Positions 10,704-29,164 of a DNA stretch of 64,000 nucleotides are shown piece after piece; position 1 is the first letter of the stretch, and every line of letters begins with the position of its first letter. The notes beneath the pieces were generated by a model. The model saw only the letters and a program-made list of their open reading frames with translations, ran no database searches and was not told the DNA's origin. The stretch is from an uncultured Smithella sp. (GTDB lineage: Bacteria; Desulfobacterota; Syntrophia; Syntrophales; Smithellaceae). The stretch covers positions 25,143 through 89,142 of the forward strand of contig CAZSQS010000001.1 of assembly GCA_964608995.1 (NCBI GenBank). The letters are read 5' to 3'. Both the position numbers and the translations under genes were made by a program.

Positions 10704-10731
10704 GCCTTGCACCTTGCACCTTGAACCTTCT
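10704..10731. repeat. heptamer tandem array (GCCTTGC ACCTTGC ACCTTGA ACCTTCT)
   Basis: Read directly. Four 7-nt units lie between the two hsp20 genes, and the last nt overlaps the stop of the upstream hsp20. Confidence 0.6.
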
Positions 10732-11123
10732 TACGCCGCCTGGATTGGAATTTTTTTCGGTTTTACTTTTTCCGCTTTCGGCAATTCCAGGCGCAAAACG
10801 CCGTTTTTCACGGTGGCCGCGATTTTATCGCGGTCAATTTCATCCGAAAGCGTAAAAACTCTCTCATAATCGCCGATCTCATATTCGGAATACATGAGAT
10901 TCGCCCCTGCAATCCGTTCCTCCTCCACCCGGCCGGTCAGGGTCAGAATATTTTTTTCCAACGCGATATCGACCGTTTTTTCGTCCACCCCCGGCATGTC
11001 GGCAATCAGATACAGCGCGTTTTTGTTTTCGTAAATATCGACGCGCGGCACAAAGGTTTTGACGTTGCGCACGCGCTCCGCGGCCGACACATTTTCGGTT
11101 TTCTGTATATCTTTTTCAATCAT
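10731..11123 (-). CDS. Hsp20/alpha-crystallin small heat-shock protein (paralog 2)
   Basis: PRVDIYENKNALYLIADMPGV..VKNGVLRLELPK. AGGAGG lies upstream of the ATG. Confidence 0.9.
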   Translation of the reverse strand: MIEKDIQKTENVSAAERVRNVKTFVPRVDIYENKNALYLIADMPGVDEKTVDIALEKNILTLTGRVEEERIAGANLMYSEYEIGDYERVFTLSDEIDRDKIAATVKNGVLRLELPKAEKVKPKKIPIQAA

Positions 11124-11141
11124 GGCGCATGGCCTCCTTTC

Positions 11142-11579
11142 TTATTTAATCTGAATCTTTTTGGGCAGGTCTTCTTTGATCCGAGGCAGCGTAATGACGA
11201 GTACGCCTTTGTCATAGCGGGCTTCCACGGCCTGCTGATCGATCGGGAAAGGGAGTTGCACGTTTCTCTTGAAAGAACCGATGCCTCGTTCCTGTCGCAG
11301 ATAGACCTCTCCTTCCAAAAGCGCGTCTTGTTTCTTTTGTGCGGCAAGGGTTAAGATGTCTCCGGTGACGGATATATCCAACTTTTCCGGATCAAAACCC
11401 GGAAGTTCCGCGGTAACGATGGCACAGGGGCCTTTTTCCCAGATGTTGATGGCGGGGTATTCCTGAGGCGCCTTTTCTCCTACGCTGGAAAAAAGCCGGT
11501 TCATCTCCCGCTGCAGTTGTAACATTTCCGGCACGACACCGGAAAGCTTCCGAACTCTCCATAAACTTGGGCTGAACAT
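11142..11579 (-). CDS. Hsp20/alpha-crystallin small heat-shock protein (paralog 3)
   Basis: PAINIWEKGPCAIVTAELPGF..YDKGVLVITLPR. Start placed at Met 11579, preceded by AAAGGAGG. Confidence 0.85.
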   Translation of the reverse strand: MFSPSLWRVRKLSGVVPEMLQLQREMNRLFSSVGEKAPQEYPAINIWEKGPCAIVTAELPGFDPEKLDISVTGDILTLAAQKKQDALLEGEVYLRQERGIGSFKRNVQLPFPIDQQAVEARYDKGVLVITLPRIKEDLPKKIQIK

Positions 11580-11654
11580 AAACTTTCCTCCTTTATCACT
11601 TGGGTTTTTTGTGCAAGCACTTGCTCTCATTCATTATTTTTATCATTCATCGCA

Positions 11655-12443: not shown

Positions 12444-13055
12444 GTGAAAACGAAAAAAGATTCAGAGAAAAAAATAAAAGTTCAAACACCCGAAAACGCA
12501 ACGGATGAGCACGCTGAGGCGGGAGCGGACGAAGCCCGGGAAGACGCTCAGGGCCTCGAAGACGCGCTTGACGCTAAAACGCAGGAAGCCAGGGAGCATT
12601 ACGAGCGCTCTTTGCGCCTGGCGGCGGAACTGGACAATTACAAAAAAAGAGCCGCACGGGACCGGGCCGATACGATCAAGTATGGCAAAGAAGAGATCAT
12701 TCGCGACATCCTGCCTTTTTTAGACAGTCTGGACCGGGCGCTGGAGCATAAGGACAGCGCGGACGCGGAGGCGTTCAAGGAGGGCATGGCGCTCATGCAG
12801 GATCAGCTGTTGTGCTGTCTGAAGAAGCATGGTGTGGAAAGGATTGACAGCGAGGGAAAAGACTTCGACCCCAACTTCCACGAGGCGCTCATGCAGGTGG
12901 AAAGCGACCGTCATGATGAAAATCAGGTCGTGACGGAAGTGGAAAAAGGCTATTTGCTAAACGGCAGACTGATTCGCCCATCGCGGGTTTGCGTCTGTAA
13001 AAAGCCGGACATCAATAACCAGAAAAGTAATATCAATGAGGAGACAGGAGAATAG
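12444..13055 (+). CDS. grpE: nucleotide exchange factor GrpE
   Basis: Acidic N-terminus, coiled coil (LRLAAELDNYKKRAARD), C-terminal GYxLxGRLIRPSRV. Directly upstream of dnaK. Confidence 0.9.
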   Translation: MKTKKDSEKKIKVQTPENATDEHAEAGADEAREDAQGLEDALDAKTQEAREHYERSLRLAAELDNYKKRAARDRADTIKYGKEEIIRDILPFLDSLDRALEHKDSADAEAFKEGMALMQDQLLCCLKKHGVERIDSEGKDFDPNFHEALMQVESDRHDENQVVTEVEKGYLLNGRLIRPSRVCVCKKPDINNQKSNINEETGE

Positions 13056-13067
13056 GAGGAAATACAT

Positions 13068-14990
13068 ATGGGAAAGATTATTGGAATTGATTTGGGCACG
13101 ACCAATTCGTGCGTGGCCATTATGGAAGGCGGAGACCCCACGGTTATCGCCAATCAGGAGGGGAACCGCACCACGCCGTCGGTGGTTGCTATCACGGAAA
13201 GCGGCGAGCGTCTGGTGGGTCAGGTGGCCAAACGTCAGGCGATCACGAACTCGGAAAATACCGTTTACGCCGTTAAACGATTGATCGGCCGGAAATATAG
13301 TTCAAAAGAAGTGCAGTACGACGTGAAGATTTCGCCCTATAAGATTACCGAGGCGACCAATGGCGACGGACAGCTGACGGTCCGCGGCAAGAATTATTCG
13401 CCGGCGGAAATTTCGGCGATGATTCTGACAAAAATGAAACAGACCGCCGAAGACTACCTGGGCGAAAAGGTATCGGATGCGGTCATCACCGTTCCGGCCT
13501 ACTTTAACGATTCCCAGCGACAGGCCACCAAAGACGCGGGTCGCATTGCGGGCTTAAACGTGCTGCGCATCATCAACGAGCCGACCGCAGCCGCGCTGGC
13601 CTACGGCCTGGATAAAAAGAAAGATGAAAAAATTGCCGTGTTCGATCTGGGCGGCGGAACGTTTGATATCTCCATTCTGGAACTGGGAGAAGGCGTCTTT
13701 GAAGTCAAATCGACCAACGGCGACACGCACTTGGGCGGCGAGGACTTCGATCAGCGCGTGATGGATTATCTGGTCAATGAATTCAAGAAAGACCAGGGGA
13801 TCGATTTAAGGAGCGATAAAATGGCGCTCCAGCGCCTCAAGGAAGCGGCGGAAAAGGCCAAGATGGAACTGTCCACCACGATGGAGACGGACATCAACCT
13901 GCCGTTCATCACGGCGGATGCCTCAGGTCCAAAGCACATGAACATCAAGCTCAGCCGCGCCAAGCTCGAATCGCTGGTTGAGGAACTCATTGAAAAAGTC
14001 GCGGGCCCCTGCCTGACGGCGATCAAAGACGCGGGCCTTTCGGCTAAAGAAATTGATGAAGTCATTCTGGTGGGTGGCATGACCCGCATGCCGCGCGTTC
14101 AGCAGAAAGTGAAGGAGCTCTTCGGCAAGGAGCCGCACCGGGGCGTCAATCCCGATGAAGTCGTGGCGGTGGGCGCGGCCATTCAGGGCGGCGTGCTGGC
14201 CGGCGACGTTAAAGATGTCCTCCTGCTCGATGTGACGCCTCTGTCGCTGGGTATCGAAACACTGGGCGGCGTGATGACGCGGCTCATCGAAAAGAATACG
14301 ACGATTCCGACCAAGAAGAGCCAGATCTTCTCGACGGCAGCCGACAATCAGCCGGCCGTGAGCATCCATGTGCTCCAGGGCGAGCGCCAGATGGCGGCGG
14401 ATAACCGCACGCTGGGCCGTTTTGAACTGGTGGGCATTCCGCCTGCGCCCCGTGGCGTACCGCAAATTGAAGTGGGCTTCGACATCGATGCCAACGGTAT
14501 CGTGCACGTCAATGCCAAGGATCTGGGTACAGGCAAAGAGCAGAGCATCAAGATCACGGCGTCAAGCGGCTTGAGCGAATCGGAAATTGAAAAGCTTGTC
14601 AAAGACGCGGAAATGCACGCCGAAGATGACAAACGCCGCAAGGAGCTCATTGAAGCCCGAAACTCGGCAGACTCGCTGGTGTATTCCGTTGAAAAGAACG
14701 TGAAGGAATTCGGCGACAAGGTGGATGCGGCGGAGAAGGCAAAAATCGAAGAAGCGATTGCGAAAGTCAAAAAAGCGCTTGAGGGCGATGATCTCGACGC
14801 CATCAAGAAGGCACAGGAAGAGCTGATGAATGTCTCGCACAAACTGGCCGAGGCCATGTATGCCAAGACCGCAGGCGGACCGGGCGGACCGGGCGCCGCA
14901 GGCGGTGCTCAGCCGGGATCAGACGAGCAGGCCGCAGGCAAAAAAGACGACGATGTTGTCGATGCGGATTTTGAAGAAGTGAAAAAGTAA
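13068..14990 (+). CDS. dnaK: molecular chaperone DnaK (Hsp70)
   Basis: [32 protein letters not shown] and the C-terminal [18 protein letters not shown]. Confidence 0.98.
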
Positions 14991-17054: not shown

Positions 17055-17058
17055 GGAC

Positions 17059-17086
17059 GAGGGTAAGAGGTAAGAGGTAAGAGGGA
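17059..17086. repeat. heptamer tandem array (GGTAAGA x3 plus degenerate flanks)
   Basis: Read directly: gaGGGTAAGAGGTAAGAGGTAAGAGGGA, starting 5 nt after the stop codon at 17052-17054. Confidence 0.6.
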
Positions 17087-17319
17087 CGTAAAAGATAAAA
17101 ATAAGTGTTTATCCACGGTGTCAAAATAACATTCTCGCTTGAATATAATTAAATTTTCTGTTGTCTTCCCGGTCTGGCATATGCTGGATAAACATCCGTG
17201 CCGAAGTCTGTTGAAGGCCCAAGGAACCCGTTCAAACAATATTTAAATTACAGACTTTATTGGCATGACAAACGTAAATTCAATGATAAGAACTTGATCT
17301 GGCAACCGGCAACCGCGCC

Positions 17320-18093
17320 ATGAACGCGTACAAGAAAGGTGATCAATTGACATTGGGAAAATCAACTGTATTTGCAAACAAGCAGGGCGTATCCAGCGCC
17401 AATAGCGGCGCTACTGCCTCAAACACCTTGCCGGATGTATGTCTCACGCAGATAGGCAACGCCGTTGTGCCGATTCCGTATTCCAACACCGCCCAATCTT
17501 CCGATCTTAAAGACGGCAGCAAAACCGTTCATGTTGACAAAGCGTCCGCTGCGATTGACGGCTGCTCCTACAGCAAGAGCACCGGTGACGAGGCGGGTAA
17601 CAAAAAGGGGATTATTTCCGGCACAAAAGGCGACAAGGCGGAATTCGGCAACTACTCCTTTGATGTAAAAATCGAAGGCAAAGGCGTATGCCGCAACACC
17701 GACCTTACGATGCACAACAACAGAAATACGATTGGCATGAATTCGGATTCCTCTGCCGATCCCCCGCCCCCCAAAAACCCTCCGCCCCCTAAAACAACAT
17801 TCCGCTTCAAGGTGTTGGAGCACATCTCATGGGAAAATTACGATCCAGACGCAAAATGCTTCAAGCCGGGCGACGCAAACAACAATCCCATCCAAAACAG
17901 AAAATTCAAAATTCGGTTCTCCGACGGCAGCATTCGCGAAGAAACCACGGATGATGAAGGGATTATTGAACTGAAAGATCAGGATGTGCACTCCAAATTT
18001 GAAGTCATTTTTGAACCGGAAGACGCACGTCTCAATAACAAATACTATCTATTCCATCATGCAATCACCCCGCTGGCAAAGATTCTGGAATAG
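17320..18093 (+). CDS. PAAR-like (DUF4150) spike-tip protein with Pro-rich linker and C-terminal TTR/carboxypeptidase-regulatory-like beta domain
   Basis: LPDVC..VPIPYSN..SKSTGDEAGNKKGIISG..FDVKIEGKGVCRNTDLTMHN matches my recollection of Pfam DUF4150. Linker DPPPPKNPPPPK. C-terminal pattern KFKIRFSDGSIREETTDDEGIIELKD..FEVIF. Confidence 0.8.
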   Translation: MNAYKKGDQLTLGKSTVFANKQGVSSANSGATASNTLPDVCLTQIGNAVVPIPYSNTAQSSDLKDGSKTVHVDKASAAIDGCSYSKSTGDEAGNKKGIISGTKGDKAEFGNYSFDVKIEGKGVCRNTDLTMHNNRNTIGMNSDSSADPPPPKNPPPPKTTFRFKVLEHISWENYDPDAKCFKPGDANNNPIQNRKFKIRFSDGSIREETTDDEGIIELKDQDVHSKFEVIFEPEDARLNNKYYLFHHAITPLAKILE

Positions 18094-18128
18094 GCAGCAG
18101 GTCAGCTACGAAAGATTGAGGACATCAT

Positions 18129-20057
18129 ATGGCAAAGAATAAAAACGAACAAAACGACCCCAAAGGCTGCATTCTGAAGTCTCACCTGCCGGTCATGTTG
18201 CCGGGTGTGGATTATCAGATCAGCATCTATCAACCGTCGGTTGTGATGGATAGTCACATGCACGTGATGAGCGGCGGTTGTTCTCCCCTGCCGTTTTTAT
18301 GGAAACAGCTCGCCGATAAAACCGTCTGCGTTATTGAAACCGCCCATTTGTCTCGAGAGACCATAGAAGGCGCGGGACTGATGATTGGGGTGACGGCGGA
18401 TATGGTCACGCTGCAACCGCTTACAGGCGATCAGGTGGACGTTCCCGGTTCTGCAGGCGAAGAAACACAATACCGGCGGCATTCATTCCGGCAATCCATT
18501 CCAGAGAGCAGAAAGTCAACGAAAGAAATCGGTGATGATTTTATAAAGACCCGGTTCAAGGACGCTTGCCATTATCTCCGAAGCGAACCATTCCACCAAA
18601 CGCTGCAAGCAGATGATGAAACCGGACGGATGCCTTTTTTGCTTTGTGTGATCATGCCGATGGACATGGAGTTTGCCCATCTGGACGGCTACTATGGTCT
18701 TAAAATCTATAATGCGGTTTTAAAATATGACAAGGTGCGGCAGGAAAGCAGGGTCGCCCATTACTGGATGCCCCTGCATGGTCGCTTCTTCAAGAAAAAA
18801 CGTGACGAAAAAATATATGATCAAAGCCATGATCCAAATCCGCTGCAGAACGTGAAAATTGACGCGCAACTCACGGACGAATTTGATAAAAACTTAAAAA
18901 ACATTAAAAAATATGGCTTGCCGGGCATTTATTGTGAAGAGAAGGATGAGATACTAAACAGGGTCAGAATTAACGTCAAAGCAACCCCCTGCATTTTGCC
19001 CGATTCCGAAACCCGGCGATACGAATCATGGGAAAAACAATTGCAAAATACGGAACTGGCAATGCTGGCCAACCCCCTGAAGCTTTTTCCTCTGTTTCAC
19101 TACGACCCGAGGCGCTGGCAGGTGGCTGACACTTACAACGATAATCCTTTTACTCAGGTCAGCGGCAGCGGTCTTTATTTGGGGTTCAAGCTTTACACTG
19201 CGCAGGGATACCGTCCCTGGGATATGCGTTTGCCGGTTTTGAGAGATTTCTACCGCCGCTGCCGTACGGGCAATATCCCTATTCTGAATCACTGTACGCC
19301 AGGGGGTGCCTACAGTTTTGACCGGGAACTGTATTATGAATTTTTGCACCAGAATGATGCAGATGATTCCTATGCAAATCAGGAAAAAGCAGACTGCGGC
19401 GGCGACACCTTGAAATACTTTAACGATAACTTTGTCGCACCTGACGCCTGGCGAAAAGTGCTGGACGCTAAAGTCGGAGGAACCAGGCTGTCCGGACTGC
19501 GCCTGTGCCTGGCGCATTTCGGTGGTGGGACGGACGACGGACTTGCATGGTGCAAACAGATTATTCAATTAATGAAAGACTATGACAACGTCTATGCGGA
19601 CATTTCCTCGTCGATGGCTGACGAATCAAAGCATCCCAAAACGAAAGAAAAAAACCGGGACAGATTTAAAAAACATTTTCGGGACGTCGTTTTTCATGAC
19701 CCGGAATTTAAACAGACGCTTCGTCACCGGATATTATTCGGGTCGGACTGGTATATGACGCTTCTGGACCGTGTGGAATATCTGGAGTATTTTAGAGAGA
19801 CCAAGAAATTTCTGGACGATCTCGACACCAGTCTTTGGTTGCGCTTCACACAGGCCAATCCCTACCGATTCTACCGGCTGGATGAGGCAAACCAGATTGA
19901 CCGGATAAAGGAAAATATTATTGACAGAAGGCAGAATAATGAGAAGGTCCAACAAACATTGAAAAGACTAGACAAAGAACAAATCTCCGAAATCGAACGA
20001 GAAGCTGCCTTCATTAGAATAGCCAATAAGCCTTATGTAAAATATGAGGAATCATAA
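18129..20057 (+). CDS. amidohydrolase-superfamily (Amidohydrolase_2-like TIM-barrel metal hydrolase) protein with ~270 aa insertion; candidate cargo effector
   Basis: Metal-ligand pattern in the canonical order: MDSHMHV (HxH) ... GFKLY ... PILNHC ... LCLAHFGG ... LFGSDWY. The coding region is low in G+C. Confidence 0.6.
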   Translation: MAKNKNEQNDPKGCILKSHLPVMLPGVDYQISIYQPSVVMDSHMHVMSGGCSPLPFLWKQLADKTVCVIETAHLSRETIEGAGLMIGVTADMVTLQPLTGDQVDVPGSAGEETQYRRHSFRQSIPESRKSTKEIGDDFIKTRFKDACHYLRSEPFHQTLQADDETGRMPFLLCVIMPMDMEFAHLDGYYGLKIYNAVLKYDKVRQESRVAHYWMPLHGRFFKKKRDEKIYDQSHDPNPLQNVKIDAQLTDEFDKNLKNIKKYGLPGIYCEEKDEILNRVRINVKATPCILPDSETRRYESWEKQLQNTELAMLANPLKLFPLFHYDPRRWQVADTYNDNPFTQVSGSGLYLGFKLYTAQGYRPWDMRLPVLRDFYRRCRTGNIPILNHCTPGGAYSFDRELYYEFLHQNDADDSYANQEKADCGGDTLKYFNDNFVAPDAWRKVLDAKVGGTRLSGLRLCLAHFGGGTDDGLAWCKQIIQLMKDYDNVYADISSSMADESKHPKTKEKNRDRFKKHFRDVVFHDPEFKQTLRHRILFGSDWYMTLLDRVEYLEYFRETKKFLDDLDTSLWLRFTQANPYRFYRLDEANQIDRIKENIIDRRQNNEKVQQTLKRLDKEQISEIEREAAFIRIANKPYVKYEES

Positions 20058-21298
20058 TGAAAGAAAAAATGGTTATGAAGCGGCCGAAAAAGTTTTTCTG
20101 GTACGCTCTTTTTATGTTGGCCGTCGTCAGTTTGTTGTTAACATCTACCGTTTACGGGGGAGGAAAGAATAAAATGGAATATCTGTATGATGTCAATGAT
20201 GCAATAACATTAATCCCGCAGGTTTACAAAATGAACTCAAGTTCAAGCCTGTCCCTGTTTCCCGTGCCTTTTGACAATGCCGTGGGCACTAACGATATTG
20301 CCAATGCCGTCACTATCTTCAGTTTTCCCGGCGGGAAGCTGGGCCAAAATAATTATTTCCGCAGAGCCTTAGACGATATTCAGGGTGGTGGAACGTATCT
20401 GCCGGTGATTGCGCAAGACCTGATCGGTTTCGGCCAGACGCGGGTATTTTATCTTTTCAATTTCAAAACCAAAGCAGCTGAGGAATACCGGATTGTTTAT
20501 TCGATTGAGGAAACCATAGAACAAATCGCCATTGCGGATGCCCAGAGCAGGCGCTTTATTTTTGAGATACAGGAAAATAAAAGAGGTTCGGTAGATGCAT
20601 GGGACTTTACTAACAAATTACAGTTGATTGACTTGTTCACTAAAGAAATTAAACTGCTGAAGAAAATAGACATTGGTGTCGGATCAACATGGGCAACAGC
20701 ATATGACAGAGTTTTCTTGTGGTATTTTAAAAAACAGGAAATGCAGGTTCTTGATATGAACTTGGCGGCATCGAATCATCCTTTGGTGGATGCTATCAAA
20801 CGCGTCAAGGATAAAGTTGATTTTTCACGGTTTGCGCTTCCCGCGATGTTGCCCTTTGCCATACTATATGGCGGCGACTATGGTTCAACATATATAAGCT
20901 GGGGGGATGGCAGAGACAAAACGCCAAAATTGTTAATCAGTGGTATCGATCAGGTTTCATTTTCTCCCGACGGCAAGTGGGTATCTTTCCGAAAGTACAT
21001 CAACTCACAGCAGGAAAGAACCTATATCATGCCCATCTCCGAAAAATACCCTAATTATCTGGGATCGCCGATCCTGTTGATGAAAGATTATTTTAATCCC
21101 AAAAACTGCGCCTGGACAACCAACCCCATCAGCTTTGTCGGGTCAGACAGCAAGCTTCATCGTTGGGAACTCACAAAGGTAGCGCAACGATCAATCATGG
21201 GAGAAGATGCCGACAAATTTGATACATTCCACGACTACATCGTCGCGAAAGATTTAGAGAAGCTGACCAAGGAAAAGAAGCAGGGATTGGGAAAATAG
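20057..21298 (+). CDS. N-terminally membrane-anchored/secreted beta-propeller-like protein (TolB/PD40-like repeat); candidate immunity protein
   Basis: Basic N-terminus plus hydrophobic helix (FFWYALFMLAVVSLLLTSTVYG) and the PD40-like SFSPDGKWVSF. The start overlaps the upstream stop (TAATG). Confidence 0.45.
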   Translation: MKEKMVMKRPKKFFWYALFMLAVVSLLLTSTVYGGGKNKMEYLYDVNDAITLIPQVYKMNSSSSLSLFPVPFDNAVGTNDIANAVTIFSFPGGKLGQNNYFRRALDDIQGGGTYLPVIAQDLIGFGQTRVFYLFNFKTKAAEEYRIVYSIEETIEQIAIADAQSRRFIFEIQENKRGSVDAWDFTNKLQLIDLFTKEIKLLKKIDIGVGSTWATAYDRVFLWYFKKQEMQVLDMNLAASNHPLVDAIKRVKDKVDFSRFALPAMLPFAILYGGDYGSTYISWGDGRDKTPKLLISGIDQVSFSPDGKWVSFRKYINSQQERTYIMPISEKYPNYLGSPILLMKDYFNPKNCAWTTNPISFVGSDSKLHRWELTKVAQRSIMGEDADKFDTFHDYIVAKDLEKLTKEKKQGLGK

Positions 21299-21323
21299 AA
21301 AAACAGGATGCGGGGTTAGGGGC

Positions 21324-24821: not shown

Positions 24822-26762
24822 ATGTCGATGAACGAAAGCAAAGAAAGCCAGCATGAGCCGGAAATCAGCGAATCGGGAAACGCGCCTGTTCAGGACTCGG
24901 GCTTTGCAGCGATTTTTTCCTCAAGGCTTTTCGCCCTGGGACTGGCGCTGGTGTCGCTTGTGTTTATTTCATGCTATGTCTTCTTCTTTACGAATTACCA
25001 GGACTTTCTCTACAGCGACATGGGCGGCTTCTGGTGGCGGGCGATAGAGCGCCTCAAGGGCAACACCTTCGAAATAACGCAATACTGGGCCTGGCCGCCC
25101 GGCTACCATATCTTTCTGGCGGAGCTGTTTCGGGTTTTTCTGTGGCTCGGGCTGGAAAGCCTTATCCGTCCGGAAACGCCGCTTGCGATCAATATCCTGT
25201 TGTATGCGGCGTCCGTCTATGCGCTCACGCGCATTTCGGTGCGCTGGTTTAAAAAGCCTCTGTGGGGCGCCATCACCGTGGGGTTTTACATTTTCGGCTT
25301 TCCGGCCTGGTATCTCAATGCGTTTTTGCTTTCCGGCAATCTGGCGCTGCCTTTGCTGGTCATGGCCGCCTGCCTGCTTTATTGCCGCGAGGACTGGCTG
25401 TCGATTGTTTTAGCGGCGGTTCTTTTTGCCCTGGCGTCCTTCGTCCGTCCGTCGGTGGCCCCCTTCGGTCTGGCCTTCGTCATTTATTTTTTCATCCGCT
25501 GGCGCCCAAGCTTTGCCTTTATCGCCCGCGCCGCCGTCTTTTCCGCCATATTTTTTGCGCTGATTGCCCTGGGCATGGCCGAGGTGTCCCGCATCTCCGG
25601 GGGGCGGGTGTCAGGCCTGTCCGCCAATGGTGGCCTGGATTTTATGCTGTCGAATTCACGCCATCATCGCGTCGATATGTTTTATCAGGGGTATCATTGC
25701 ACAATTGGATTGCCGGCCCTGGCTTTCAAGCCGGAAAAAGGTTATTTCAAAACGAATGTGCCGTTTTGGGATCAGGCGTATTACTATCGGCTCGGCTGGG
25801 AGCATATCCGGCATAACCCCTCGCGGCTGATCAAGAATTTTGAACATGTCTGGGACCTGTTTTTTTCGCCGATGCTGCCTTCCAGAGAAACCCCCGGCTA
25901 CAAGTTTTTCCGTCCGGCGTGGGATATCTTTAAATTTCTGATGTTTCTGTCGATGGGCCTTTACCTGTGGTTTGCCAGGCGTCTTTTGCCGGATGAGCGC
26001 CCGCTTTTCGGCTTTCTGATGAGCGTGATGGGCCTGACGCTCCTGGTGAGTTATCTGTTTTCCGGCGAGCCCCGCTATGGCTATGCGATCATTTTTGTTT
26101 TTTATCTTCTTTTCTTCAAACTGGCCGAAATGCTTTTCGCCAACTTTAAGCGCTGGATAAAGGTATTGCTGATGTATGCCGTGGGGGTTTTGCTTGCCGC
26201 CGGCGGCATTATTGCCATTGTCTATTGGCTGGATTCTTATCCCGCGACGATGAGAATGGATATCCGTCCGCTTGCGACGGCCCCGGGTGGGGAAGTGAAA
26301 CTGACCCAGGACATTTCGCGCCTGTTTTTCCCGTTTGCGCGCCTGGGAGGGATTGCCCATCATGAAACAGGGTATCGTCTGAAAGACCCTGTCCGGGTTT
26401 CCGCACGCACGGAGATGGAGATTGCCGGTTTAGTTCCCCTGAAGATGGATTTTGATATCGTCAGCACCTGGCCTTTTATTGTTCTGATCGATGGCCAGCC
26501 GCTGATTGCCGACGAGAACCCCTATTATGTCGATGGGCCAAAAGCGCCGCCCGATGCCGACAAGGGTTTGGAGCGCAAGGCGTTCATCACGCTGAAACCG
26601 GGGCGCCACACGCTGGAGATGGTTTTTGATTTTGACCGGCTGGAAGGCGGCTATGCCATTAATTATAACTATCCCGGACCCGACGGATGGCTGCACCGTA
26701 AAATGGTGGGTGTCAACTCCGGTCCGGTGAGTTTTCATTTGCCAAAAGGAGCCGCCCCGTGA
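24822..26762 (+). CDS. polytopic GT-C-type membrane glycosyltransferase (ArnT/PMT-like) with C-terminal ~180 aa soluble beta-rich domain
   Basis: More than 10 predicted TM helices, the same architecture as the 27812 paralog (shared GLSANGGLDF / GLGANGGLNF loop), and a non-membrane C-terminal region (26229-26762). Confidence 0.6.
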   Translation: MSMNESKESQHEPEISESGNAPVQDSGFAAIFSSRLFALGLALVSLVFISCYVFFFTNYQDFLYSDMGGFWWRAIERLKGNTFEITQYWAWPPGYHIFLAELFRVFLWLGLESLIRPETPLAINILLYAASVYALTRISVRWFKKPLWGAITVGFYIFGFPAWYLNAFLLSGNLALPLLVMAACLLYCREDWLSIVLAAVLFALASFVRPSVAPFGLAFVIYFFIRWRPSFAFIARAAVFSAIFFALIALGMAEVSRISGGRVSGLSANGGLDFMLSNSRHHRVDMFYQGYHCTIGLPALAFKPEKGYFKTNVPFWDQAYYYRLGWEHIRHNPSRLIKNFEHVWDLFFSPMLPSRETPGYKFFRPAWDIFKFLMFLSMGLYLWFARRLLPDERPLFGFLMSVMGLTLLVSYLFSGEPRYGYAIIFVFYLLFFKLAEMLFANFKRWIKVLLMYAVGVLLAAGGIIAIVYWLDSYPATMRMDIRPLATAPGGEVKLTQDISRLFFPFARLGGIAHHETGYRLKDPVRVSARTEMEIAGLVPLKMDFDIVSTWPFIVLIDGQPLIADENPYYVDGPKAPPDADKGLERKAFITLKPGRHTLEMVFDFDRLEGGYAINYNYPGPDGWLHRKMVGVNSGPVSFHLPKGAAP

Positions 26763-27508
26763 ACCCAGACACGACGACGTCCCCGCCGGTTGCGCTGAGC
26801 ATCGTGCTGCCGACCTACAATGAAAAGGATAACATTATCGTTTTGTTGTCTGAGCTGGAGCAAGTGCTTGCGCTGCCTTGGGAGGCCATTGTGGTCGATG
26901 ACGACTCGCCTGATGAAACCTGGCGGGCGGTGTCGGAATTTGCCGCCACGCGTAAAAATATCCGGCTTTTGCACCGCAAAAATATTCGCGGCCTCACCAG
27001 CGCGCTAAACGATGGTCTGGCGCTCGCGCAGGGAAAATTGGTGATGTGGATGGATGTTGATCTGTCCATGCCGCCGCAAAAGATCCCTGAGCTGTTGCGG
27101 GCCATCGAAGCAGGCGCGGACGTGGCGGTGGGCTCCCGCTACGTCCCCGGTGGCGGCGACGCGCGCGCCGTCAATCCTCTGTTGTCGATCCACTGGCTTT
27201 TGAGCAAAATCCTGAGCATCTTAAGCGGCTGGGCGCTGGGGTGCCGTTTTCGCGACTGGTCCAGCGGCTTTATCGTGATGAAGCGTGAGTTTCTGGAGGG
27301 CTACCGCCTCAGCGGCGATTACGGCGAATATTTCATCGCGCTCATTGTTTATTTAATCAAGACGCGCAAGGCCCGGGTGGTTGAAGTGCCCTACATTCTG
27401 GTCCCGCGTGAGCGTGGCGAATCAAAAACCGCCACCAACCTGTGGGGCTTCATCCGGCGCGGCCGAAAATACCTGAGCATGATCGCCCGCCAGCGTCATA
27501 CCTCTTAG
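26759..27508 (+). CDS. GT2 polyprenyl-phosphate glycosyltransferase (ArnC/DPM1-like)
   Basis: SIVLPTYNEKDNI, VVDDDSPDET, DVDLS. About 250 aa with a C-terminal hydrophobic segment. 4-nt overlap with the upstream gene. Confidence 0.8.
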   Translation: MNPDTTTSPPVALSIVLPTYNEKDNIIVLLSELEQVLALPWEAIVVDDDSPDETWRAVSEFAATRKNIRLLHRKNIRGLTSALNDGLALAQGKLVMWMDVDLSMPPQKIPELLRAIEAGADVAVGSRYVPGGGDARAVNPLLSIHWLLSKILSILSGWALGCRFRDWSSGFIVMKREFLEGYRLSGDYGEYFIALIVYLIKTRKARVVEVPYILVPRERGESKTATNLWGFIRRGRKYLSMIARQRHTS

Positions 27509-27811
27509 GGTAGCCTCCCTTGAAATTCTTTCCATTCTTTGCGTATCCCCGGTAAATAAAAATTGACAAAAACAACAGATGCGGCTAATCAGGCTTCTCG
27601 TTTGACATATATTTGTGGCGTTTTCTTTAGCCACCAACTGAAAACGGAAGGGTTTGCTCGATTGCCGCTCAAATCGAGGGTAAAAGAAAATGGATTTTCT
27701 TGGCAAACAAAAAAGAGCTTTACGGCCGAGGTCTGCTCATGACCGAAGTTCCGGAAAGCGCATGAAACGAAGCGGGGCAGGGCCGCCTGTGGCTTTCCCG
27801 AAGGTCATCCT

Positions 27812-29164
27812 ATGATCCGATCCCTGTGGGGGAAGCTTTCCCGGTTCATTTCGGCCCATCCAGGCTGGTTTCTGTGCCTTTTGTCCTTCGCCGTTACTGT
27901 GGTCTATGTATTTTGCTTTACGGAATACTGGACCTACAACGACGACAGCGACGCGGGCGGTTACTGGTTTCGAGCCATTGCCCGGTTTGAAGGCGAGCAG
28001 TTCTCCGTCGATCAGTGGGTCATCTGGCCGCCGCTGTATCACATTATCCTGTCGTGGCTTTTCTATCCGATCAAGTTTCTCGGGCTCTGGGAACACAACC
28101 TGAGCATCATCATCTTTTTGCAGATTCTCTTGGGCAGCGTCAGCATCTACTTTCTGTATCAACTGCTGGTCCGGATTTTTCATAATAAAAAATTAAGTTT
28201 CGATGTTACCCTCTTCTATGTTTTCACCTATCCGGTTGTGTATCTGTATGCTTTTGTCTTTTCCGAAAATATTGCGCTGCCGCTGTTTATCATCGCGCTG
28301 AGTCTGGTGTTTTGCCATACGGACCAGAAGAAATATCTTTTTATCGCTGGGCTCCTCTTCGGCATCTCCATTGGTGTGCGGCCCGCTTTTGTGCTGTTTG
28401 TTCTTCCGGTGAATTTCTATATTTTTGCCTATCGGCACAAAGGGTGGGCCTGGGGAAACGCCGTGGCCTTCGGCATCGCCTTCACGCTCATTTTTTCGGC
28501 CGTTTCTCTGGAAAACTACCGCATCTCCAACGGCGCGGTGAAGGGCCTGGGCGCAAACGGCGGCCTTAATTTCTTTCTGGGCCAGTGCAAAGTGAGCGAG
28601 GTGAATTCCCGGTTTGACAACTGGTATTATATCATCGGCCCGCCCGGCTATGAGGAATACTATGGCAAACGTGTGTTCAATACCACCCATCCCATGTATG
28701 ATCAGGATTATTTTTATGATTTAGGAAAAAAATGCCTCAAAGAAAGAGATGGCGTGATCTGGGAGAATATCGACAAAATCAAATTTCTGTTCGTGGGGCA
28801 GTTGTTTCCCATTGTGCCGTCGGCGTTTGGCGTCTTGTTCTTTATTCCCATTTTTACGGTGATTATTACAGTTACGGCGATTTTGTCATTTTTCATCTGG
28901 CCGGTTCTCTGGGTGAGAAAATACGACCGCTCGCGGCAAAAAATATTATGGGTCTTCTGGAGTTTTATGTTCCTGACCTTCGTTATGGCGTTTTTCTTCC
29001 ATACCGAGCGCCGCTATATCTACAGCCTGATCTTTGTCATCTACGTCATGTTCTTCAGTGTCTTTGCCATTTCGTGGCCACCGTCGCTGGAGTGGATCCG
29101 TCGCTTTTTAGTTGGATCGCAAGACGGAAAAGATGAAACACAGGACGATACCCGTGCGTCTTGA
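27812..29164 (+). CDS. polytopic GT-C-type membrane glycosyltransferase (ArnT/PMT-like), paralog 2
   Basis: Multiple TM helices. The N-terminal region is collinear with 24822..26762 (YWFRAIARFEGEQFSVDQWVIWPPLYHI vs FWWRAIERLKGNTFEITQYWAWPPGYHI). Confidence 0.6.
   Translation: MIRSLWGKLSRFISAHPGWFLCLLSFAVTVVYVFCFTEYWTYNDDSDAGGYWFRAIARFEGEQFSVDQWVIWPPLYHIILSWLFYPIKFLGLWEHNLSIIIFLQILLGSVSIYFLYQLLVRIFHNKKLSFDVTLFYVFTYPVVYLYAFVFSENIALPLFIIALSLVFCHTDQKKYLFIAGLLFGISIGVRPAFVLFVLPVNFYIFAYRHKGWAWGNAVAFGIAFTLIFSAVSLENYRISNGAVKGLGANGGLNFFLGQCKVSEVNSRFDNWYYIIGPPGYEEYYGKRVFNTTHPMYDQDYFYDLGKKCLKERDGVIWENIDKIKFLFVGQLFPIVPSAFGVLFFIPIFTVIITVTAILSFFIWPVLWVRKYDRSRQKILWVFWSFMFLTFVMAFFFHTERRYIYSLIFVIYVMFFSVFAISWPPSLEWIRRFLVGSQDGKDETQDDTRAS

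Follow-up and report, generated by a model that had tools for sequence, protein, structure and literature searches.

A three-gene island in a Smithella genome

We analyzed a 64,000-nucleotide stretch of DNA from an uncultured Smithella sp. (positions 25,143 to 89,142 of the forward strand of contig CAZSQS010000001.1, GenBank assembly GCA_964608995.1; hereafter, the window), in which a gene for a predicted hydrolase of 642 amino acids (aa) lies between a gene for a protein with a PAAR-like domain and a gene for a predicted periplasmic protein, designated here the partner. An initial annotation, made from the DNA alone, had described the hydrolase as an amidohydrolase-superfamily protein and a candidate new effector fold. 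Our data suggest that the three genes probably form a type VI secretion system (T6SS) effector-immunity cassette, related to the TsxE/TsxI pair of Myxococcus xanthus. The features of this island, with their supporting evidence in parentheses, are given below in coordinates of the window; Mod125 is our name for the ~115-aa second part of the PAAR-like protein.

17055..21323, plus strand: orphan three-gene effector island, between a LppC/Peripla_BP_6-like gene and surE (GC content, flanks)
17320..18093, plus strand: predicted spike-tip protein, 257 aa, PAAR-like domain fused to the adaptor-like module Mod125 (Pfam, Geobacter matches)
17419..17736, plus strand: Tox-PAAR-like (DUF4150) domain, residues 34-139 (PF13665, E-value 1e-35)
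17737..18090, plus strand: Mod125, residues 140-257, a proline-rich linker and a beta-rich module of ~110 aa (Geobacter match)
18129..20057, plus strand: predicted TsxE-family amidohydrolase-fold effector, 642 aa (Pfam, homologue searches, AlphaFold2, Foldseek, comparison with TsxE)
18249..18263, plus strand: D41-x-H43-x-H45, candidate metal ligands at the end of beta1 (conservation and model)
18264..18635, plus strand: insert 1, mostly helical, between beta1 and beta2 (residues 46-169)
18636..18680, plus strand: beta2 (170-176) and the invariant M178-D179-M-E181-x-x-H184 (alignments, model)
18681..19082, plus strand: insert 2, a beta-rich subdomain followed by helices (residues about 185-318)
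19083..19883, plus strand: beta3-beta8 with H324, R328/R329, K354, H388, H463, D491 and D540 (Pfam, DSSP, conservation, Foldseek)
19884..20054, plus strand: C-terminal helical extension, residues 586-642 (model)
20057..21298, plus strand: periplasmic beta-propeller, 413 aa, predicted cognate immunity protein of the TsxI family (homology, model, gene order)
20057..20161, plus strand: signal-peptide-like N-terminus of the partner, residues 1-35 (alignment of homologues)

The genes are closely spaced: the PAAR-like gene ends 35 nucleotides upstream of the hydrolase start, and the TAA stop codon of the hydrolase shares one nucleotide with the ATG of the partner, which is preceded by GAGGA at a distance of 8 nucleotides. 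The GC content of the island (17100-21300) is 0.46, compared with 0.535 for the whole window, and its flanks consist of housekeeping genes, with grpE, dnaK, a PLD-like gene and the LppC-like gene on one side and surE and a DegT gene on the other. When these flanking genes (grpE, dnaK, PLD, LppC, surE, DegT) were searched in 70 related loci, none of the loci shared them, and thus the insertion site is not shared. A promoter and terminator scan of the island was uninformative. All three open reading frames (ORFs) are intact and every conserved residue is present; for this reason, the cassette, although an orphan, is probably functional.

Homology to TsxE and TsxI of Myxococcus xanthus

The hydrolase ORF starts with ATG, and each of the motifs quoted in the initial annotation was located in its product: MDSHMHV (residues 40-46), GFKLY (352-356), PILNHC (384-389), LCLAHFGG (459-466) and LFGSDWY (536-542), together with a charged C-terminal segment (591-628). 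Pfam assigned the protein to a single family, Amidohydro_2 (PF04909; 43.7 bits, E-value 3.8e-11, curated gathering cut-off 26.4), which was also matched by 46 of 56 distant relatives. The match spans only residues 352-584, corresponding to profile positions 109-289 of 289, so that the N-terminal ~350 residues are outside the family model. An NCBIfam scan detected no family for the PAAR-like protein, the hydrolase or the partner. A word-indexed search with the hydrolase yielded 290 homologues, and an exhaustive search yielded 290, 1572 and 2820 clusters (counted at 50% identity) at E-values of at most 1e-30, 1e-10 and 1e-3, respectively. TsxE-like family members occur in Desulfobacterota (Geobacter, Smithella, Syntrophus, Desulfuromonas), Myxococcota, Fibrobacterota, Acidobacteriota and SAR324, and the hydrolases nearest to the window copy were from Smithella and Syntrophaceae. 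Public annotation describes these homologues only as "amidohydrolase family protein" or "predicted TIM-barrel fold metal-dependent hydrolase".

A previous genetic study of M. xanthus (Troselj et al. 2018, PMC5801462) described TsxE (MXAN_5572), a protein with amidohydrolase 2 and LysM domains that is encoded downstream of vgrG2 and is required for T6SS-dependent killing. TsxI (MXAN_5571) protects from TsxE, and attacked cells lacking tsxEI round up. In our protein collection, TsxE corresponds to P0390 (669 aa), which begins with METYVVKDGD and contains LIYEHPD, both consistent with the published cloning primers; its gene is located between a VgrG gene and an ORF of 383 aa that begins with MEPNKD and ends with KPDGK, in agreement with the tsxI primers. 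The window hydrolase and TsxE could be aligned by BLASTP over nearly their entire lengths (residues 1-616 versus 56-651, E-value 3e-44, 23% identity), and hhalign matched the hydrolase family profile to TsxE with a probability of 100% and an E-value of 2e-58. The partner profile matched TsxI (hhalign probability 94.8%, E-value 5e-8, 294 columns) and its Corallococcus counterpart (97%, E-value 1e-10). These matches indicate that the whole effector-immunity pair is homologous to TsxEI. By these comparisons, the window hydrolase is new but belongs, as a distant relative, to the TsxE family, with its partner in the TsxI family, and does not define a new effector class; the proposal of a new effector fold is not supported, given TsxE, an Amidohydro_2-type T6SS effector established genetically in 2018 (PMC5801462) and homologous to the window protein from end to end.

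The two hydrolases have the HxH strand, two inserts in the barrel and all candidate metal ligands in common, as well as the motifs MDMxYxH and HYxPRR, and both systems have a TsxI-type gene downstream and linkage to T6SS spike genes. They also differ in several respects. Apart from the low identity, the window hydrolase has no LysM domain by Pfam, and most relatives also lack it (in TsxE itself the Pfam match to LysM is marginal, E-value 9e-4). Its insert 2 is about 70 residues longer, whereas in TsxE a further, helical insert separates beta5 from beta6. The window gene is linked to a gene for a PAAR-like protein with Mod125, whereas tsxE directly follows vgrG2, and the window partner has a clear signal peptide, whereas none is obvious in TsxI. 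Later papers mentioning TsxE added no biochemistry, and no other amidohydrolase-superfamily T6SS effector was found in the literature; Tse8 is a member of the unrelated amidase-signature family. TsxE is the toxin by which M. xanthus kills less-fit siblings, and it is placed here in a much larger family. If its chemistry is confirmed, an amidohydrolase-superfamily enzyme would be added to the interbacterial toxins. For the window itself, the result is the annotation of an orphan effector-immunity island.

Structure model and conserved residues

The AlphaFold2 model of the hydrolase, based on an alignment of 97 sequences, had a mean predicted local distance difference test score (pLDDT) of 85.2 and a predicted TM-score (pTM) of 0.88. 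Strands assigned by DSSP form a (beta/alpha)8 barrel, with the following conserved residues at or after the strand ends:

beta1, residues 38-45: H43, H45
beta2, residues 170-176: D179, E181, H184
beta3, residues 319-325: H324
beta4, residues 353-355: K354
beta5, residues 385-388: H388
beta6, residues 459-462: H463
beta7, residues 488-491: D491
beta8, residues about 536-537 (a two-residue strand ending at F537): D540, three residues later

Conservation was examined in two alignments of hydrolase homologues, A1 and A2, the latter containing 97 close relatives. D41, H43 and H45 are invariant in A1; in A2, H45 is invariant and D41 and H43 are at least 90% conserved. Residues that are invariant or nearly so in the 97 close relatives are D41, H43, H45, M178, D179, E181, H184, H324, R328, R329, K354, N387, H388, H407, H463, D491 and D540. 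In the 56 distant relatives, which average 10% column identity, the candidate ligand positions are still invariant or at least 90% conserved; in particular, the Asp of DxHxH is invariant and both of its His are at least 90% conserved. With the homologue counts given above, this conservation is not due to chance. H43/H45, H388, H463 and D540 are located at or just after predicted strand ends, and the candidate metal ligands are H43/H45 (beta1), H388 (beta5), H463 (beta6) and D540 (beta8), in addition to the invariant K354 on beta4. K354 could serve in substrate binding or, if carboxylated, as the bridging ligand of a binuclear center (subtype I of Seibert and Raushel). The superfamily assignment of the initial annotation, with its ligand series in order, was borne out by Pfam (above cut-off), conservation, the AlphaFold2 model and Foldseek.

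Foldseek searches of the Protein Data Bank (PDB) with this model gave, as top matches, ACMSD (4eri, E-value 3.7e-4), 2,6-dihydroxybenzoate decarboxylase (2dvt), LigI (4dia) and a COG3618 lactonase (4dlf), all with a probability of 1.00 and target-normalized TM-scores of 0.42-0.59 (4dlf, 0.59). TatD proteins ranked below these Amidohydro_2 structures (4p5u, target-normalized TM-score 0.54; also 1xwy and 1j6o), and a search of viral structures found nothing at an E-value of 0.001 or better. Amidohydro_2 enzymes such as ACMSD, gamma-resorcylate decarboxylase, LigI and COG3618 lactonases have the same fold, a (beta/alpha)8 barrel whose HxH is on beta1, with one His each on beta5 and beta6 and Asp on beta8. 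However, the window hydrolase carries about 260 residues more, in two inserts that flank beta2, and a helical C-terminal extension; it also has the invariant Lys of beta4 and further invariant positions (D179, H184, H324, R328/R329, D491), and it occurs in a toxin-immunity context rather than in catabolism.

The initial annotation had noted an insertion of ~270 aa (residues 60-330) and had proposed structure prediction and Foldseek comparison to define it. These residues are indeed outside the Pfam model, and the approach yielded a barrel with Amidohydro_2 matches; however, the region is not one insertion, as it includes beta2 and beta3, and splits into two inserts that flank beta2 and are separated by the invariant MDMxYxH motif (178-184). 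In the model, insert 1 contains helices 54-61, 66-72, 76-94, 119-127, 131-152 and 154-162, and insert 2 contains strands 196-201, 206-216, 264-272, 275-283 and 286-289 (DSSP). Among 131 relatives, the spacing between HxH and MDM is 83-336 residues (median 126), showing that insert 1 is found throughout the family, and the spacing between MDM and HYDPRR is 70-263 residues (about 145 in the window protein and 77 in TsxE). Both inserts are a hallmark of the whole family and are not peculiar to the window hydrolase. Neither matched a Pfam family at an E-value of 5 or better, and neither matched the PDB. These two family-specific inserts probably shape the substrate site.

The C-terminal extension was modeled confidently as helices 587-603, 605-610, 616-631 and 634-641 (pLDDT 90-98). 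This speaks against disorder, and the coiled-coil-like tail described previously is not supported; in A2, 4 of the 57 positions of the extension are at least 90% conserved. At the other end of the protein, the motif EQNDPxG (here EQNDPKG, residues 7-13, window 18147-18167) is nearly invariant in the family, although its pLDDT is low (39-57). In proteins with Mod125 fused to the hydrolase, this motif is located just past the junction, and it is possible that the segment docks onto Mod125.

Genomic context and domain fusions

The PAAR-like protein could be matched in two parts to Geobacter sulfurreducens. Residues 12-138 share 62% identity with the 126-aa PAAR-like protein encoded in the T6SS cluster of this organism, and residues 138-247, which correspond to Mod125, are 51% identical to the product of a separate 125-aa gene located between the PAAR-like and hydrolase genes. 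The gene order in this cluster is VipA-VipB-Hcp-x-LysM-VgrG-DUF6484-HEAT-g347-PAAR-like-Mod125-hydrolase-partner-DUF2169. In Pfam, both the window and Geobacter copies of Mod125 gave just sub-threshold prealbumin-like/Ig-like matches (SpaA, E-value 0.03). We propose that Mod125 is a cargo adaptor. A study of the Geobacter T6SS in co-cultures performing direct interspecies electron transfer reported that the T6SS genes of G. sulfurreducens are split between two clusters; its list of effector-related proteins contains the PAAR-like GSU3182 and GSU3181 (tse4, named there as a protein of fatty acid metabolism) and omits the hydrolase. Thus, the G. sulfurreducens T6SS cluster carries a TsxE homologue that is absent from the published effector list.

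To describe the context more broadly, we scanned one genome per species, which gave 67 loci, and used the proteins of the cassette and of the Geobacter T6SS as queries against the ORFs of these loci. Counts refer to the 59 loci with a hydrolase match at an E-value below 1e-20, and loci with room for the neighboring gene are designated testable. A partner homologue was directly downstream of the hydrolase in 48 of 53 testable loci, and a PAAR-like domain or Mod125 was directly upstream or fused in 29 of 48. VgrG was found within 10 kb of the hydrolase in 21 of the 59 loci and any T6SS marker in 34, while 14 loci had at least two copies of the partner (two to eight, in tandem). Loci of Geobacter, Pelotalea and Desulfuromonadaceae have DUF2169 genes flanking the cassette. 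The initial annotation had reasoned that the toxin proposal would fail if close homologues were ordinary metabolic enzymes in catabolic operons; instead, at least one cassette or T6SS-context element was present in 58 of the 59 loci.

PAAR-like domain, Mod125 and hydrolase were observed in all four separate or fused states:

three separate genes: G. sulfurreducens
PAAR-like and Mod125 fused: this window
Mod125 fused to the N-terminus of the hydrolase: P0106, P0110, P0111, P0115, P0117, P0118, P0241
PAAR-like, Mod125 and hydrolase in one polypeptide: P0004, P0012, P0013, P0095

Distant relatives were fused to Hcp (three proteins, and one more matching the related TssD model), to a VgrG-type DUF2345 domain (one) and to a classical PAAR domain (P0398 of Nannocystis). 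Together with the conserved VgrG/T6SS context and the homology to TsxE, these fusions support the earlier suggestion, drawn from the adjacent PAAR-like gene, that the hydrolase would be a delivered enzyme. The fusion patterns also give testable hypotheses: Mod125 as a cargo adaptor, peptidoglycan as the substrate and the propeller as a periplasmic inhibitor.

Cargo effectors that depend on PAAR-like (DUF4150/PF13665) proteins and DUF2169 adaptors include Tde2 of Agrobacterium. The TsxE-like cassettes resemble them in having a PAAR-like domain directly upstream of, or fused to, the effector. In contrast to the nuclease cargo of this type (Tde2), the window effector is an amidohydrolase barrel, the additional module Mod125 is located between PAAR-like domain and cargo, and DUF2169 is absent from the window.

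Within one Smithellaceae chromosome we found both a VgrG-linked cassette (L017) and a cassette without a T6SS gene within 10 kb (L005). Another Smithella locus (L004; metagenome-assembled genome (MAG) JAGPFC010000036.1, 8989-20977) contains a full-length hydrolase-partner pair followed by three more pairs, in which the hydrolase copies are 5'-truncated, start at residues ~151, ~151 and ~377 and lack the HxH strand, and each has its own partner. Each of the first two truncated copies has the same repeated peptide-coding stretch ahead of it (..KKSGCSERFRCKAREEP..GEAYIAIRRTGRFA..). In L004, displaced effector fragments and immunity genes thus seem to form an array, which suggests diversification by recombination. 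Arrays of displaced toxin fragments with immunity genes are known from polymorphic toxin systems, which L004 resembles. Tandem arrays of propeller genes after a single hydrolase were also observed: L031 (12132-20556) contains up to about 8 copies or fragments, L027 (11944-18209) 4 copies, and L033, L054 and L052 3 each. Such tandem partner arrays are typical of immunity-gene accumulation; together with the truncated hydrolase copies of L004, they can be read as signs of an arms race.

Two further proteins in these loci may be mentioned. g347 (GSU3181 type, 347 aa; L002 8132-9175 in G. sulfurreducens) has a marginal match to the N-terminal ketoacyl-synthase domain (E-value 9.5e-5). It is conserved upstream of the PAAR-like gene, in the cassette with the HEAT-repeat protein and DUF6484, and no copy was found in the window; rather than being a toxin, it may have an accessory function or serve in loading. 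In a Candidatus Gracilibacteria MAG (L037 1783-5403), an ORF of 1207 aa combines a Peptidase_M19 (membrane dipeptidase) segment with a TsxE-like hydrolase and is followed by a partner homologue. Gracilibacteria are not known to carry a T6SS, which makes this ORF odd; it could reflect a binning artefact, an effect of an alternative genetic code or a different delivery route.

The predicted immunity protein

The partner is 46% identical (E-value 6e-129) to the product of the gene downstream of the G. sulfurreducens hydrolase and matched no Pfam or NCBIfam family. Its 277 homologues likewise have no Pfam family of their own, and the ankyrin-type families detected in one of them, P0142, belong to a fusion protein. 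The AlphaFold2 model of the partner (pLDDT 88) consists of a lone N-terminal helix (11-34), about 28 strands and two C-terminal helices, and Foldseek matched it to WD40 propellers (E-value 3e-9).

In nearly all of 73 aligned partner homologues, the N-terminus consists of a basic n-region, a hydrophobic core of 15-20 residues and a c-region of small residues (for example ..TTVYG/GG or ..AIAHG/A). The few homologues without the full signal peptide start inside the hydrophobic core and look N-terminally truncated. From this pattern, the N-terminus of the partner homologues is predicted to be a Sec signal peptide. The envelope location proposed for the partner in the initial annotation, and with it a probably periplasmic target, is supported by these N-termini and by the peptidoglycan-binding domains fused to relatives of the hydrolase.

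Proposed mechanism and substrate

Taken together, the genes at 17320-21298 most probably encode a TsxE/TsxI-family T6SS effector-immunity cassette that would work as follows. The hydrolase would be a cargo toxin that binds Mod125 of the PAAR-like protein, which would in turn cap a VgrG spike encoded elsewhere in the genome. Contraction of the sheath would then drive the toxin-bearing spike into the periplasm of a neighboring cell. There, the toxin might act as a metal-dependent hydrolase on its Amidohydro_2-type (beta/alpha)8 barrel, with peptidoglycan as the likeliest substrate. Kin cells would be protected by the product of the translationally coupled gene, a beta-propeller that would be exported by Sec and bind the toxin in the periplasm.

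Peptidoglycan is our best guess and the leading candidate substrate because the immunity protein is predicted to be periplasmic, because relatives of the hydrolase carry LysM, OmpA, PG_binding_1 and CHAP domains and because cells attacked with TsxE round up. Among 56 long relatives, OmpA was found in 6, PG_binding_1 in 4 and LysM in 2, and in P0400 the hydrolase domain is part of one protein with LysM, PG_binding_1 and CHAP. An OmpA domain is also present in a Desulforapulum homologue, and LysM in TsxE itself. The predicted logic is that of the Tae and Tge effectors with their Tai and Tgi immunity proteins, in which an enzyme without a signal peptide acts in the periplasm and the immunity protein is exported by Sec; P0400, with its CHAP domain, is a further likeness to the Tae amidases. 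However, Tae proteins (NlpC/P60 or CHAP) have papain-like Cys-His active sites and Tge proteins are lysozyme-like, whereas the TsxE-like enzymes are predicted metal-dependent TIM barrels. A tentative extension, to which we assign slightly less than an even chance, is that the TsxE-like family represents a mechanistically new class of T6SS toxins, in which a metal-dependent amidohydrolase barrel would cleave or modify peptidoglycan or another envelope polymer by a chemistry found in no characterized T6SS effector, with the inserts as a substrate platform, the prealbumin-like Mod125 as an adaptor on PAAR-like tips and a periplasmic seven-bladed propeller that neutralizes the toxin.

A number of observations weigh against the mechanism and substrate proposed above for the cassette. 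When the window was searched by tblastn with VipA, VipB, Hcp, VgrG, DUF6484, HEAT, g347 and DUF2169 proteins of Geobacter, none was found in its 64 kb; with the T6SS core genes absent, delivery would depend on loci elsewhere in the genome. TsxI of M. xanthus (L071 8022-9173; MEPNKDPFLLTPQLPAPAAP...), which is experimentally validated, has no obvious signal peptide, in contrast to nearly all of the 73 Desulfobacterota-type partners, so that periplasmic action may not extend to the whole family, including TsxE in Myxococcus. That the conserved His, Asp and Lys residues would converge on one metal site is deduced from strand positions in the model and from knowledge of the family. Foldseek matches to solved structures have an identity of only 11-13%, and PDB searches with the full hydrolase, the 97-sequence profile or the barrel half alone gave no meaningful match. 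The literature reports biochemical activity for no family member, as only the genetic work on TsxE was found. By Pfam, the window hydrolase has no peptidoglycan-binding domain of its own. Finally, the structures solved for the Amidohydro_2 clade are mostly of decarboxylases, lactonases and hydratases, not of peptidoglycan amidases, and thus the fold itself does not point to peptidoglycan.

Alternative explanations

The same T6SS pair might act on a periplasmic substrate other than peptidoglycan, such as a membrane lipid, a component of lipid A or lipopolysaccharide, a lipoprotein or a small metabolite, for example with lactonase-, esterase- or phosphotriesterase-like chemistry. Such an activity would agree with the nearest structures, none of which is an amidase, and with the finding that only 12 of the 56 long relatives, and not the window hydrolase, have a peptidoglycan-binding domain; a periplasmic immunity protein would be compatible with any envelope target. 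However, the hydrolase fusions seen in different lineages involve three unrelated peptidoglycan-binding domains (LysM, OmpA, PG_binding_1) and a CHAP amidase, with no lipid-binding domain among them, and the rounding of TsxE-intoxicated cells is a typical cell-wall phenotype. We therefore consider a different envelope substrate unlikely.

It is also conceivable that the window cassette is a stranded remnant that delivers nothing and is kept mainly for its immunity gene, as a defense against neighbors firing the same toxin. The absence of T6SS and adaptor genes from the 64 kb, the low-GC island in a housekeeping neighborhood and the immunity-only arrays and truncated effector copies of relatives could all be understood in this way. 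The cassette genes are nevertheless full-length, intact and tightly coupled, with every conserved residue kept, and split T6SS loci are normal in relatives, as illustrated by the two clusters of G. sulfurreducens and by L017 and L005 of Smithellaceae. A remnant thus seems improbable, and we favor a cassette served by T6SS genes elsewhere in the genome.

A T6SS-delivered toxin acting in the cytoplasm, for example a TatD-like metal-dependent nuclease, is very unlikely. TatD DNases belong to the amidohydrolase superfamily and are among the Foldseek neighbors (4p5u, 1xwy, 1j6o), with a target-normalized TM-score of about 0.54; many effectors linked to PAAR-like (DUF4150) proteins are nucleases, for example Agrobacterium Tde2, and the lack of an evident signal peptide in TsxI would fit a cytoplasmic target. 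Yet both the Pfam assignment and the better Foldseek matches are to Amidohydro_2, and the window hydrolase has an invariant Lys on beta4 in place of the Glu of TatD-type centers. The latter arrangement reportedly goes back to the classification of Seibert and Raushel in 2005. Further differences from TatD DNases are the large barrel inserts, the signal peptides that nearly all 73 partner homologues carry, which predict a periplasmic immunity protein, and the peptidoglycan-binding domains fused in relatives. The TatD DNase family was rejected as an assignment because Amidohydro_2 is the only Pfam family, beta4 has Lys and not Glu, and TatD ranks lower in Foldseek.

A metabolic amidohydrolase of the ordinary kind, for example a lactonase or a decarboxylase of aromatic acids in a catabolic operon that adjoins a PAAR-like gene by chance, would fit the Pfam family, the structural neighbors and the public annotations, but it is effectively refuted by the lack of adjacent catabolic genes, the cassette or T6SS context of nearly all loci, the PAAR-like, PAAR, Hcp and VgrG-type domains covalently fused to the hydrolase in relatives and the homology to the genetically proven toxin TsxE.

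Other genes in the window

The island is located 25 nucleotides upstream of surE, on the same strand. Upstream of grpE-dnaK (12444-14990, plus strand), two adjacent ORFs of 130 and 162 aa (10731-11630, minus strand) resemble HSP20-type small heat-shock proteins by eye only, and the island is thus in a chaperone/housekeeping setting. Further downstream, two large multi-pass membrane proteins (24822-26762 and 27812-29164, plus strand) appear by eye to be paralogous, and their hydrophobic sequences suggest ArnT/PMT-like glycosyltransferases. Near this pair are a DegT aminotransferase and a methyltransferase, both assigned by Pfam, and glycosyltransferase-like and UDP-sugar-dehydrogenase-like ORFs identified by eye only. 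The genes around 24822-29164 look like a cell-surface glycan cluster unrelated to the cassette.

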